From Octopus vulgaris (taxonomy: Eukaryota): a DNA stretch of 64,000 bases. The stretch spans positions 14,570,001 through 14,634,000 of the forward strand of contig OX597815.1 of the NCBI GenBank assembly GCA_951406725.2. Reading direction: 5' to 3'. Below, one piece after another: positions 22,227 to 29,220 of the stretch (positions are counted from its first letter, which is position 1; each line of letters opens with the position of its first letter). Position numbers and translations under genes: made by a program. The notes beneath the pieces were generated by a model, which saw only the letters and a program-made list of their open reading frames with translations, searched no databases and was not told where the DNA came from.

Positions 22227-22233
22227 TATAAAA
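22227..22233 (+). promoter_or_regulatory. Candidate TATA box of the peptide gene
   Basis: TATAAAA 88 nt upstream of the ATG at 22315. Confidence 0.5.
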
Positions 22234-22314
22234 CAGATCGCCACCTGACTGTTTAAGCGAGAACCTCTTCTTTCCATCTTGCAAGACATTTGAAAACCAG
22301 CCTTCTCGATAATC

Positions 22315-22428
22315 ATGGCGTCAACTCTTAAATTCGTTGTGCTTCTCTCAGTTGCCATTGGCCTTCTTGTCACAACAACCAATGTGATGGCTGACCAAGA
22401 TAATCCTGAAAATCCGCCGACAGAAAAA
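22315..22428 (+). CDS. Exon 1 of a putative secreted peptide precursor (MASTLKFVVLLSVAIGLLVTTTNVMA-DQDNPENPPTEK)
   Basis: Good Kozak context ATCATGG; n/h/c signal-peptide pattern with V-x-A site; ends at donor AA|GTAAGC (phase 0); unique sequence. Confidence 0.72.
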
Positions 22429-24269
22429 GTAAGCATTTTATTTTTTATTTTTACATTTTCAGTCATTATTGCGTCATTGGACTTATTCATTTTACCCTAT
22501 AACATTAATTATCAATATGAAGAAAACAATATTCGTTATTATGATTTAGCTTATTCAAATTTGATGTAAAACCTCTCATTTTCATGAATACATATAGGAC
22601 AGTGTTGTTAAGAAGCTCGTTTTGCAACCATGGGGTTTCTGGTTCAGTCCCAAAGAGCGGCACTTAGGGCAAGTATCTTCTGTTACAGTGAATTTGGTAG
22701 ACGGAAACTAAGTGGAAGCTCGTCGTATGTGTGTGTGTATCTGTTTGTCCCCAGTAGTGCTTGACGACCGGTGTTGGTTTGTTTACGTCCCCGTCACTTA
22801 GTGGCTCGATGAAAGAGACCGACAGAATAAGCACCAGGCTTATTCTGAGAAGTCCTAGACAAATTAAGTACAAGGCGACGCCCCAGCAAGGCCGCAATCC
22901 AATGACTGACACAAGTAAAAGAAAATAAATAAAGGCATAGATACACGCTCATGGTGATTACTCTGATCGACCCCAGTACTCAACTGGTTCTTATTTTATC
23001 GACCCCGAAAGGATGAAAGACAAAGTTGACTCTGGCGATGATATTTGAACTCAGAACATAAAGACAGACGAAATGCTGCTAAACATTTCGCCCGACATTC
23101 TTACGATTCTGCCAGCTCACCGTCTTCAAAGACACCAGAATATTGGTCAGGTCGAATCGTTGAATAGTTTCTTAAGATGAGCATCTTATCTGTAATGTCT
23201 TGAAAGTGAGACACTGTACAACTTGTCAGAAATTGAAACCCTATCGCTGACACGATACACCAGGAACTTACCGCGACACACTGGCGTTCATAATCAATTG
23301 AATCCGTTCGGTGTATCGTTGGTATTTATTTCGAGTGAAAGGGCGGGGGTGGCAGGTAAAAGATGAAAATTATATGGGTCCCTGGACTACCGGTATTCAA
23401 CTAGTAAACATTGATCAACTTTAGTGGGTGAATAAAAGACGAAAATATAATGAATCTCCGAGCTGTAGGATGATGAACCAGCATCTGTTATCAACTCTAG
23501 TTTTCGATAAAAGAATACAGTGGATCACCGGACTATGCAGTACTGAACTAACCACCCATTAATCCAATCCAGCTTTCTACAATCTGTACTATCAAGATTA
23601 CAATTTCCTTTTTCCAGTCAGAAAAGATATCTCTGCGTTGTTGCCTGATCTCCAAGAAGTAGCAGCTAAATTTCTTTGAACTCTTACTTAGGCGTCTTGA
23701 AAACGATATCTGTTGTTGCATTGCATAATGTACGCTGGGGTTATTTTGATCATAGATCCACTCATCCACCTAATCAGGCATTAAACAACAACAGTGACCT
23801 CTTTCTTTAGGTTACATACAAAACCGTATATCTTTATGAAGGCTTACGGGATGTTGTGGTTTTCATCACTTCAAAGCGAGTGAATAACTTCGATAGATGT
23901 GAAATAACTTCGATGGAAAAAGTAAACGGAGAAGAGTACCAGGAATTTACGATTTAGATAGCATGTGCAGTGTGTTACGATGAGATATCACACTGCACAA
24001 CAGAATATATCCATAGATTTTTAATCAACATTGTATGAAATAGACAAAAGTAAACACTGTCTGTGTATACAATGAAAATCTGTATACGCAATGACTTCGT
24101 GGACACTCAACCCTGTATGAGATTTCATCAGTGAGACAGTGCTTGTAAGTCCACAATTCCTACGGGATAAAATAAACGGAATAGACCAAGTTATATGCCG
24201 CACCCCTGGTAGTTAGTTTGACAATCTGTTAAAGAGTAATATTTCAATGCTTTACTACACTGCAGGATA

Positions 24270-24605
24270 TACGTGGTGCGATGAATAAACTGTCGTCTAA
24301 ATTACGCAAAAATGAAAATAACACTGGCATCTCATTTTAACAGATATATTTACCAAAATTACATAAAAATATCTTGAAATACTAAAGAGTAAATTTATTC
24401 AATAAAATCGCCATTGGCTTCTACCACGACCTCCAGACGACTTCGGAATATCCTGCAACTCTTCTAGACAGTCTTCGTGTTTACGTTGGTGAATGGTGCC
24501 ATAATCCTTGCCTTCATTTCATATTTGGCGTTACAAGGAGTTCTGTTGGTCTCTCGCTCAGCTGCGTCCCACACATAATAATCAAAGGGGTTGCAGTCTA
24601 AGTCA
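24270..24605 (-). mobile_element. Tc1/mariner (maT/DD37D-like) 3' fragment
   Basis: Minus translation [18 protein letters not shown]...FRSRLEVVVEANGDF. Confidence 0.7.
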
Positions 24606-24850
24606 AACGATTGTGGGGAGACAAACACAGACACACAAATACACGCATACATACATGCATATATATATATATATATATATATATATATATATATATATAT
24701 ATATATATATATATATATATATATATATATATATATATATATATATATATATATGATATATATATATGAATATATATATGAATATATATATATATGAATA
24801 AATATATATATATATATATATATATATATATATATATATATATATATATA

Positions 24851-25036
24851 AGGTTAATCCAAACATGAAAACACAACAACGTGGAACAAGTATAGTGTTA
24901 TTGGACGCTCAGGAAAGGAAAGAAAGAAGGGGGATTTAACTTTTCGAGTGGAGCTCTTCATCAGAAACATAGGAAAAGGAAAGATCCGAGGAATGGAAGA
25001 CGGAGGAAAAAATCGCCAACGATACACACGCGGTCA
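24851..25036 (-). mobile_element. Penelope-like pLTR fragment (copy of 11762-11970)
   Basis: High similarity to 11762-11970; embedded in (TA)n. Confidence 0.65.
24934..24968 (-). ncRNA. Minimal hammerhead motif, mutated
   Basis: Minus: GUUU-CUGAUGA-A-GAGCUCCACUC-GAAAAGUU-AAAU; GAAAC has become GAAAA. Confidence 0.55.
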
Positions 25037-25047
25037 TATATATATAA

Positions 25048-26648: not shown

Positions 26649-27046
26649 TAGCAGAACCAGGAATAAAGTATGATAGAAGCAATACACATGTACACATGTA
26701 CTCCCGTGCAGGAGTATATGTGTACTACACGAGTATATGAGAGAGAGAAAGAGGGAGAGAGAACAACTCTCTCATGATAGAAAGAAGATTTTATCCGTGG
26801 TGTACTAAACGATGTGAACCTGTTCCAACATTTGCGGCTAAAATTATTCTTCTCAATCAATCAGGTGGCACGATTGTTTTTTTAGCGGTAGCCTATAATA
26901 CTTTAACAATAGAAGTGGATATACGTCGGTCACTTCTACATTAATCTGCGTCTATGGACAGATCTAGCAACAGTAACAACTGTAATACAGATAACGAAAT
27001 AAAACTATTTTACCCACTGTCACGCTCAACAGCTATGGCAGCCATA

Positions 27047-27646
27047 TATTTCTTTACTGCCCACAAGGGGCTAAACATAGAGGGGACAAACAAGGACAGA
27101 CAAAGGGATTGAGTCGATTACATCGACCCCAGTGCAAAACTGGTACTTAATTTATCGACCCCGAAAGGATGAAAGGCAAAGTCGACCTCGGCAGAACTTG
27201 AACTCAAAACTCAGCCGCGGACGAAATACCTGTTTCTTTATTACCCACAAGGGGCTGAACATAGAGGGGACAAACAAGAACAGACAAAGGGATTGAGTCG
27301 ATTACATCGACCCCAGTGCGAAACTGATACTTTTTTTATCAACCCCGAAAGGATGAAAGGCAAAGTCGACCTAGGCGGAATTTGAACTCAGAATGTAACG
27401 ACAGACGAAATACCTATTTCTTTACTACCCACAAGGGGCTAAACATAGAGGGGACAAACAAGGACAGACAAAGGTATTAAGTCGATTACATCGACCCCAG
27501 TGCGTAACTGGTACTTAATTTGTCGACCCCGAAAGGATGAAAGGCAAAGTCGACCTAGGCGGAATTTGAACTCACAACGTAACGGCAGACGAAATACAGC
27601 TACGCAATTCTCCCGGCATGCTAACGTTTCTGCCAGCTCGCCTCCT
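27047..27646 (-). mobile_element. SINE family C trimer
   Basis: Three units; TSD AGCTATG(G/A)CAGCCATA flanks the whole trimer. Confidence 0.88.
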
Positions 27647-28204
27647 TATAGCTATGACAGCCATAGCAGTAACAGTAGCAGTAGCAAATCATTGGGACAA
27701 TTCTAACAGTGATTTTCTAGAAGCTATTAGTTCAGTAATTATGCAACAATGCCTTGTGAAACGACCACAGAGTTACACGATATTTCGCAACCGGCAATTT
27801 TCATTTAGATCTGTTTAAAAAATGCATTGTATTATCGTACTATCCAGCTTAACTTTCATCAAAAGAACATATAGCTGGAAAGTAAATTCAAAGAGGCATG
27901 TTCGCTTTTAAGTGGAATAAGCAATGCAGATTCATTGGCATGTTTCATGTTTTATGTATACACACATTTATGTATTTTAAAGTGTAATATTGAAGACCCA
28001 CTTGTATATAAGGCAAAGTCGACCTCAGCGGAATTTGAACTCAGAACGTAACGGCAGACGAAATACTGCTACGCATTTCGCCCGGCGTGCCAACGTTTCT
28101 GCCAGCTCGATGTCACACTGCATTGTACACTCTCCTGACACAAAGTAGTACATTATTAAAACCCACAAATGTTCGGCTTCAGAATCTCTAACGATGAATC
28201 ATAA

Positions 28205-28926
28205 CAGGAGTTCTCGACCATTTTTTTTATGGACCTCTTTGGTTGCTTTTTTATTCTGCTGGACCCGCCTCTCGCCATAATCATTTGATGTTTAAAAAGC
28301 TAGTTTTTTTTTTTAGAAACTTCTTTCAAAATTCCTATTTTGCTTTTCACGTATTTAATTGTGTAGGTTGAACTATGTAAAATGTTAGAGAAAGAAACTG
28401 AAGAGTTTCTCGCAAACTGAAGAGTTTCTTGCAAAGCATTTAGAGAATGCGCGGGCTAAGACTACGCGCCTTCATTGGTCAGTAAAAGCTGAGACAGGGC
28501 TGCCTGCTGGAGCCTATGCGGCAGGTATTTAAAGGGAAAAATTTGACAAGTCAGTCAGTCACCGGCCGACACTCGCTGACGCTACATCGAAGAGGCCAGG
28601 GAACAGAAGAAAGAAGACATGCACCCAACACCAGAGCTGAAGACACCTCTGAAAGGGGGGCCCACCACGTCAAAACGGTAGAGGAGTAGGGGCCGAAACT
28701 GGACGTGGTTCCTCCTGATGATGTCTTGAGCTAACTGGATCCTATAAAGGAGCTGTTGTGGTAGCAGACCACGAAACACGGTTGTAATTCCTCAGATACA
28801 GACATCTAAAGCAAATTTTTTTCAGGAGCCCTTAAAACACTACAATTTACTATTTTGTTTTGTGGACCCCCAAAAAATCTTATATGGACTCTCGGGGACC
28901 ATATAGACCCCGATTGACAACCACTG
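28205..28926. mobile_element. hAT-type MITE
   Basis: TIRs CAGGAGTTCTCGACC / GATTGACAACCACTG; 8-bp TSD AATCATAA/AATTATAA. Confidence 0.75.
28430..28800 (+). mobile_element. Solo-LTR-like repeat nested in the hAT MITE
   Basis: Inverted homolog of 46729-47090; internal TATTTAAAGG; ends ...TACA. Confidence 0.55.
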
Positions 28927-29095
28927 AATTATAAATTCACGATATAAAATATTGCCGCATAAATAATTTATTTCATGGATACAACTATTTCCACATTTCA
29001 TTTCAATATTTCAATTTGTTTCTTAACTTTTTGAATCTTGTTGAGGCCTTTTTCTTACTATTTTTTTTTTTTTCTTTTTCTTTTCTTTACTGTAG

Positions 29096-29200
29096 AAAGA
29101 CTGTGAAGAGGGATCTGAGCTTTGTGTTGGCAACATCTTTATTTCTGGTGAGACAGAAATTGAAGAAAATGAGATCGCTGACGTATCTGAAAAAAAATAA
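29096..29200 (+). CDS. Terminal exon of the putative secreted peptide (KDCEEGSELCVGNIFISGETEIEENEIADVSEKK*)
   Basis: About 40-nt polypyrimidine tract plus TAG acceptor at 29093-29095; open in phase 0 matching exon 1; stop TAA followed by AATAAA. Confidence 0.62.
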   Translation, partial: KDCEEGSELCVGNIFISGETEIEENEIADVSEKK

Positions 29201-29214
29201 TTTACCAGGAGTTT

Positions 29215-29220
29215 AATAAA
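29215..29220 (+). promoter_or_regulatory. Candidate polyadenylation signal
   Basis: AATAAA 14 nt after the stop; alternative ATTAAA near 29319. Confidence 0.4.

Follow-up and report, generated by a model that had tools for sequence, protein, structure and literature searches.

In conotoxin-type precursors a conserved signal peptide is combined with a variable cysteine-containing mature part, which is encoded on a separate exon. Allatostatin C carries two cysteines six residues apart, and the loops of allatostatin C and somatostatin are C-terminal and include conserved aromatic residues. Here we describe a gene of Octopus vulgaris, located within a 64-kb stretch of contig OX597815.1 (assembly GCA_951406725.2, positions 14,570,001 to 14,634,000; referred to as the window), which codes for a 72-residue precursor of a small acidic peptide. 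All coordinates are positions within the window, and the genome searched comprises about 2.8 Gb. The gene is already annotated in two species as a nameless protein and is apparently undescribed.

The precursor resembles those of the Aplysia pheromones attractin and enticin in its layout, with one product after the signal peptide (PMC3484142). Attractin has three disulfides and a glycan, whereas the octopus peptide has one predicted disulfide and no sequence match to it. SP-alpha and SP-beta of Sepia officinalis are likewise cephalopod secreted disulfide-containing peptides which were first met as unknown sequences; according to the same source, their precursors are about 250 residues long, hold several peptides and undergo several dibasic cuts and amidation, while the octopus precursor has 72 residues, one product and no amidation signal. 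With conotoxin-type precursors the octopus gene shares the conserved signal and the fast-changing cysteine-containing mature part on its own exon (for the selection pattern see PMC4619613). Conotoxins, however, form multi-copy families with a conserved pro-cleavage site, in contrast to the one copy, one disulfide and unconserved site of the octopus gene. The C-X6-C spacing of allatostatin C is matched by Cys41 and Cys48 and is the same in the O. bimaculoides homologue A0A0L8FMF4, but the octopus loop is acidic, internal, lacks an aromatic residue, is followed by 24 more residues and gave no profile match to allatostatin C or somatostatin. The peptide belongs to no tested family, and its mode of action may resemble that of single-product pheromones or of conotoxin-type precursors.

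Gene structure and homologues

The locus holds a genuine octopus gene of two exons, whose product is a small acidic peptide predicted to be secreted. A sequence-only reading of the window had proposed a spliced gene here, and its TATAAAA, ATG, donor, acceptor, stop and AATAAA were all found where it placed them, the joined product being identical to an annotated 72-residue protein. The features are as follows.

22227..22233, + strand: TATA box TATAAAA, seen in the sequence, function putative
22244..22314, + strand: approximate 5' untranslated region (UTR) of exon 1, deduced from 186 unaligned letters of the contig of run X1, the start assuming that all of these letters, themselves unseen, are base 29096 plus exon 1
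22315..22392, + strand: predicted signal peptide, residues 1-26 (hydropathy peak, -3/-1 rule, helix 3-25 in the model)
22393..22428, + strand: remainder of the exon 1 coding sequence, residues 27-38, three codons shorter than in A0A0L8FMF4 and in the 80-residue record (see below)
22429..29095, + strand: phase-0 GT-AG intron of 6667 bases, containing microsatellites and a 184-bp tandem repeat
29096..29200, + strand: exon 2 coding sequence, residues 39-72 and stop (34 codons and TAA), the fast-diverging part
29201..29350, + strand: 3' UTR, extending at least to 29350, with AATAAA at 29215-29220 and ATTAAA at 29319-29324

The coding part of exon 1 begins with the ATG at 22315 and comprises 38 codons (22315-22428) followed by the donor GTAAGC; the acceptor TAG ends at 29095. 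Exon 2 encodes Cys41 (29102-29104), Cys48 (29123-29125), an acidic tail and the terminal KK. Only two acceptor-like sites with at least 16 pyrimidines of 20 occur in the 6.67-kb intron, 22463 and 29096. The latter is one of three sites reaching at least 18 of 20 on the + strand of the 64 kb, and the sole one of such strength in the intron. A loose scan of about 107 kb for a TATA box, Kozak context, hydrophobic stretch and donor gave six matches at five places, exon 1 scoring highest. This pattern by itself lies little above chance expectation; the reality of the gene rests on its homologues and on transcript contigs.

A protein search with exon 1 returned three candidates of 72, 75 and 80 amino acids, all of them related. 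The first is CAI9716977.1 (UniRef A0AA36EXR5), an O. vulgaris 'hypothetical protein' identical to joined exons 1 and 2 at 72 of 72 residues; being the annotation of the same assembly's locus, it does not constitute independent support. Such support comes from a second species: A0A0L8FMF4, an uncharacterized O. bimaculoides protein of 75 residues, is colinear over its whole length apart from a single gap of 3 residues where exon 1 ends, and keeps the frame, the cysteine spacing and the stop. Conservation of the reading frame in a related octopod had been set beforehand as a test, and it is this colinear protein that provides it. The 80-residue record is a third form, in which the frame of exon 1 runs on into the intron; its read-through begins like that of the window, so the donor is homologous. 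In both A0A0L8FMF4 and the 80-residue record exon 1 codes for 41 residues and ends in Glu. The signal peptide is identical to that of A0A0L8FMF4 at 25 of 26 residues and to that of the 80-residue record at 23 of 26; the latter record is the most distant one (23 and 24 of 26, against 25 of 26 between the other two). An extra internal exon was ruled out by the colinearity of A0A0L8FMF4 and by the donor after residue 41 in the 80-residue record.

Transcript contigs

Exon 2 or part of it is present in 20 of the 24 listed sequencing runs (five organism labels, nine studies), most of which are 'RNA?' guesses and none of which is recorded as RNA. Contigs of four runs (X1, X3, X10 and X16) were aligned to 28850-29350 only. 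One contig in each of X1, X3 and X10 (three studies) starts at 29097, and the 186, 115 and 139 letters, respectively, by which it is extended are unlike the intron and compatible in length with exon 1 (114 coding bases plus UTR). No contig covers 28935-29087 in any of the four aligned runs. The T-rich stretch 29048-29096 was masked in this alignment and the start point at 29097, taken alone, could be an artefact; genomic contigs of such length, however, should match again in the unique stretch upstream of 29048, which is the case for none of them. From contigs that start at the acceptor, the junction letters themselves being unseen, we infer that the exon 1-exon 2 junction is used. An 84-residue intron read-through was ruled out as the product, as the contigs use the acceptor.

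The same three contigs run through the AATAAA at 29215 and extend to 29350 or further, which makes the transcript longer than first placed: the hexamer is present as had been proposed but does not mark the transcript end, and the ATTAAA at 29319 would be the likelier polyadenylation signal. The X16 contig aligns in the UTR only (29215-29305, three differences in 91 letters), and its loose end encodes the same four last residues and stop as A0A0L8FMF4. In organism B (X10), two listed changes are replacements (residues 63 and 65) and a third, at residue 55, comes from a 9-letter loose end. The X10 contig has six differences in all, not every one of them located, and the resulting coding versus UTR comparison (Fisher p 0.044) is not relied on. 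One of the X10 changes, at 29174, is A>G and could be due to RNA editing. Four further runs of organism A contained next to none of the locus words, which says nothing on tissue specificity. A short dispersed repeat at 28850-28926 was matched by many unrelated contigs in all four aligned runs.

Copy number and family searches

Protein searches and DNA searches alike located each exon once in the 2.8-Gb genome (these counts are lower bounds). No paralogs were found in the genome by either search or in the window together with 40 kb of flanking sequence; a genome match on another contig (C5, E 8.8) was rejected as low-complexity noise. The gene is apparently single-copy. A profile search among 1.84 billion representatives, with no length limit, gave two matches, and in a 5.8-billion set three of six candidates were related; in both cases only the proteins described above were recovered. 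As far as these searches reach, the gene appears to be restricted to octopods.

The orphan status given to the peptide by the sequence-only reading was borne out, as no family was found in Pfam, NCBIfam, PDB or ESM Atlas and the profile searches returned only the three records. In Pfam, no family reached the cut-off for either of the two proteins (best E 0.056-0.11), while NCBIfam gave only hydrophobic matches below the cut-off. The PDB sequence search yielded no match for the 72-residue protein and one at E 4.5 for the profile, thus no solved structure. ESM Atlas contained no usable feature match, and structure matches obtained from a model with a pLDDT (predicted local distance difference test) of 0.41 are meaningless. 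Coleoid venom families (serine protease, PLA2, pacifastin, CAP) and tachykinins showed no domain or motif match in Pfam and PDB.

Neither A0AA36EXR5/CAI9716977.1 nor A0A0L8FMF4 carries a name, domain or function. The relevant accessions are absent from the main text of the literature searched, and the accession and motif search matched only unrelated MASTL kinase papers. We found no description of the peptide in that literature, although one may exist in supplements not seen, among them those on bioRxiv, or in papers under subscription. String searches of the readable parts of supplements gave no matches in PMC7693380, PMC6425005, PMC11525497, PMC12607849 and PMC10142993; the match in the readable part of the PMC10138644 supplement is one unrelated NCAM peptide. 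An open reading frame (ORF) of only 72 residues may be discarded by transcriptome and proteome pipelines, a possible reason for the lack of a description.

Predicted peptide and its processing

Hydropathy and the -3/-1 rule agree with the proposed signal peptide and fit cleavage after residue 26 in all three proteins, so the peptide is predicted to be secreted with the signal removed at this position. A signal anchor or a membrane micropeptide was ruled out by the hydrophobic core of about 13 residues combined with the good cleavage site. Recounting residues 27-72 again gave 15 D/E among 46 residues and one C-X6-C pair, with C41 and C48 likely to form a predicted disulfide loop. The post-signal chain is 5.1-5.5 kDa with an isoelectric point (pI) of 4.1-4.5. 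In the AlphaFold2 model (mean pLDDT 54) only the signal helix (3-25) is formed, and the mature chain is predicted to be mostly unfolded, flexible and acidic.

The earlier interpretation as a whole is partly supported, and its signal-pro-mature layout depends on the KK at the splice junction. A0A0L8FMF4 keeps the signal peptide, the C-X6-C loop and the terminal KK but lacks this junction KK, which weakens the layout; a single Lys before the first Cys motif is present in both species. The simplest source of the junction KK in O. vulgaris is probably a deletion of 9 bases (three codons) before the donor. As the 80-residue record is the most distant in its signal and has the longer exon 1, this deletion is probably derived. 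Since the junction KK is not conserved, the product shared by the two species is likely to be the whole post-signal chain; the junction KK may add an extra cut in O. vulgaris and would be dispensable for the ancestral function. The terminal KK could be trimmed, and as no Gly precedes it, trimming without amidation is predicted.

Divergence of the mature part

Between O. vulgaris and O. bimaculoides only 17 of the 34 residues of exon 2 are identical, against 25 of 26 in the signal peptide (Fisher p 1.2e-4). At least 23 base changes in 102, with about 82 nonsynonymous sites, are required to account for exon 2. In the 3' UTR, judged by the X16 contig and assuming that X16 and A0A0L8FMF4 represent the same gene lineage, 3 of 91 letters differ, or about 9 of 105 if the 14 bases after the stop are counted by hand, i.e., about 3-9%. 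The exon 2 changes exceed both values (p 8e-5 and 0.007, respectively).

O. sinensis is close to O. vulgaris and can stand in for it in estimating synonymous divergence (dS). The mean autosomal dS of O. bimaculoides relative to O. sinensis is 0.123 (PMC10925132). This value predicts 9.3 neutral changes in exon 2. Counting one change per replaced residue gives 17 (P 0.01) and the minimum base count gives 23 (P 3e-5), which corresponds to a ratio of 2.0-2.9 (nonsynonymous to synonymous divergence, dN/dS, near 2-3). Exon 2 retains both cysteines, one Asn-Ile and two Glu-Ile pairs and the EKK at its end, so the chain is not drifting freely. Together, these comparisons suggest positive selection on the mature part.

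Proposed function

We propose, at a probability of about 0.3, that the peptide is a released signal acting on a fast-changing partner, most probably in reproduction. The 72-residue precursor would release a single acidic peptide, about 5 kDa in size and closed by one disulfide loop, which would bind a receptor or surface of another individual. The partner, such as a mate, prey or microbe, would itself change fast. Analogy alone favours a reproductive role, with the peptide as a single product of pheromone or seminal type: it is put first because the gene seems single-copy, its layout is like that of the Aplysia pheromones, whose precursors consist of a signal peptide and one product (PMC3484142), and the coleoid venom families studied are mostly under negative selection (PMC4619613). 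A bolder version, which we regard as doubtful, is an octopus-specific single-copy pheromone or seminal signal under positive selection, with a part in sexual conflict or in mate recognition between Octopus species; a deletion in the O. vulgaris lineage would have created a new convertase site at the splice junction.

Several observations speak against a fast-evolving reproductive signal. Contig depth is low (5-23 in the four aligned runs), unlike that of a dominant gland product, though depth cannot rank genes; the runs carry no tissue, stage or sex labels, and their RNA status is only guessed. The searches did not connect the sequence with a pheromone or a seminal protein, attractin and Sepia SP being unmatched in the profile searches. 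The rate estimate compares a single pair of species, one of them represented by its protein but not by the DNA, and takes dS as a genome-wide value from a different pair; the UTR itself may be constrained. With dS of 0.2, P becomes 0.26 for 17 changes and 0.012 for 23; with 0.25 neither count is significant (P 0.59 and 0.09).

Small orphan secreted peptides are common, and the gene alone is a modest finding. The excess of amino-acid change, if it survives a codon test, would single out the peptide as one that may interact with mates, prey or microbes, and it is short enough for synthesis and assay.

Among the roles offered by the sequence-only reading (neuropeptide, venom or salivary peptide, pheromone), that of a venom or salivary peptide is the strongest competitor, though an unlikely one: made in the posterior salivary gland, the peptide would act on prey or aid other venom components, like scorpion acidic peptides. 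In young venomous lineages toxins show the pattern seen here, the signal being conserved and the mature part changing fast (PMC4619613), small peptides have evolved de novo in octopus venom (PMC13311285), and the known scorpion venom peptides include a class termed 'anionic'. The single genomic copy and the negative selection prevailing in the coleoid venom families studied argue against it, as does the lack of matches in salivary-gland paper supplements; this last point is weak, as the supplements are partly readable and the databases may omit a 72-residue ORF.

Somewhat less probable is a host-defence peptide of skin, mucus, gut or haemocytes, either an anionic antimicrobial or a microbe-binding decoy. 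The small size, predicted secretion, pI of about 4 and excess of amino-acid change would suit it, but the gene is single-copy, has no family match and went unmatched in proteome supplements on skin mucus and ink, as far as these were readable, a weak negative given that such databases, too, may omit so short an ORF.

An acidic matrix or ion-binding peptide (of statolith, cuticle or egg case), the mature part of which diverges by relaxed constraint, ranks slightly lower still. The content of acidic residues (15 of 46) and the predicted lack of folding agree with such a role, and the divergence fits neutrality if local dS is 0.2-0.25. Relaxed constraint alone, however, predicts about 9 changes rather than 17-23, and since the adjacent UTR is only about 3-9% different, the local mutation rate does not look high.

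In a neuropeptide precursor the mature peptide is as a rule more conserved than the remaining precursor, and the bioactive peptide lies between mono- or dibasic sites that are conserved (PMC6425005 for the latter feature). The first rule fails here (17/34 in exon 2 vs 25/26 in the signal). We consider improbable a neuropeptide or hormone precursor that would yield a cyclic peptide of 31 residues by cleavage at both KK pairs. The signal peptide, the KK pairs flanking residues 40-70 in O. vulgaris, the conserved terminal KK and cysteine loop and the single Lys shared by both species would all fit. Against them stand the absence of the junction KK from A0A0L8FMF4, the lack of relatives beyond the three records and the 50% exon 2 identity within one genus, which disfavours an ordinary neuropeptide, molluscan neuropeptides being described as extensively conserved (PMC6425005); four motifs also had no match in the readable supplement parts of that catalogue.

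That the ORFs arose by chance, that the transcript is non-coding or that exon 1 is joined to another exon is very improbable: the junction letters are unseen, CAI9716977.1 is not independent and the 80-residue record is an intron read-through, but the colinear O. bimaculoides protein keeps frame, cysteine spacing and stop, and contigs of three of four runs start at 29097 with 186, 115 and 139 non-intron letters.

Surroundings of the gene

Apart from repeats and pieces of transposons, the ORF lists of the window and its flanks contain only an array of C2H2 zinc fingers, which starts at 62.8 kb. This array (62786-64000, - strand) has an 84-bp period and continues beyond the window; near-identical zinc-finger genes and a copy of a Gypsy-like piece recur in the next 20 kb, suggesting a recent tandem duplication of a zinc-finger/Gypsy-like block. 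A broken Gypsy-like long terminal repeat retroelement lies at 56872-59552 (- strand), its gag-, protease- and reverse-transcriptase-like frames being recognised by eye. A mariner-like transposase occupies two frames at 47733-48621 (+ strand), and Tc1-like pieces are also found in sequence L009. Fragments of a reverse transcriptase of long interspersed nuclear elements and an integrase-like fragment are located at 43235-43884 (- strand), 60098-60925 (+ strand) and 51848-52902 (+ strand).

Related tandem repeats of 184-218 bp occur at 4121-4677, 11015-11387, 27047-27597 and 41098-41612, one of them within the intron of the gene. A 26-bp tandem array at 7228-8804 (60.7 copies, 90% matches) has long open frames on the minus strand and is probably a minisatellite.

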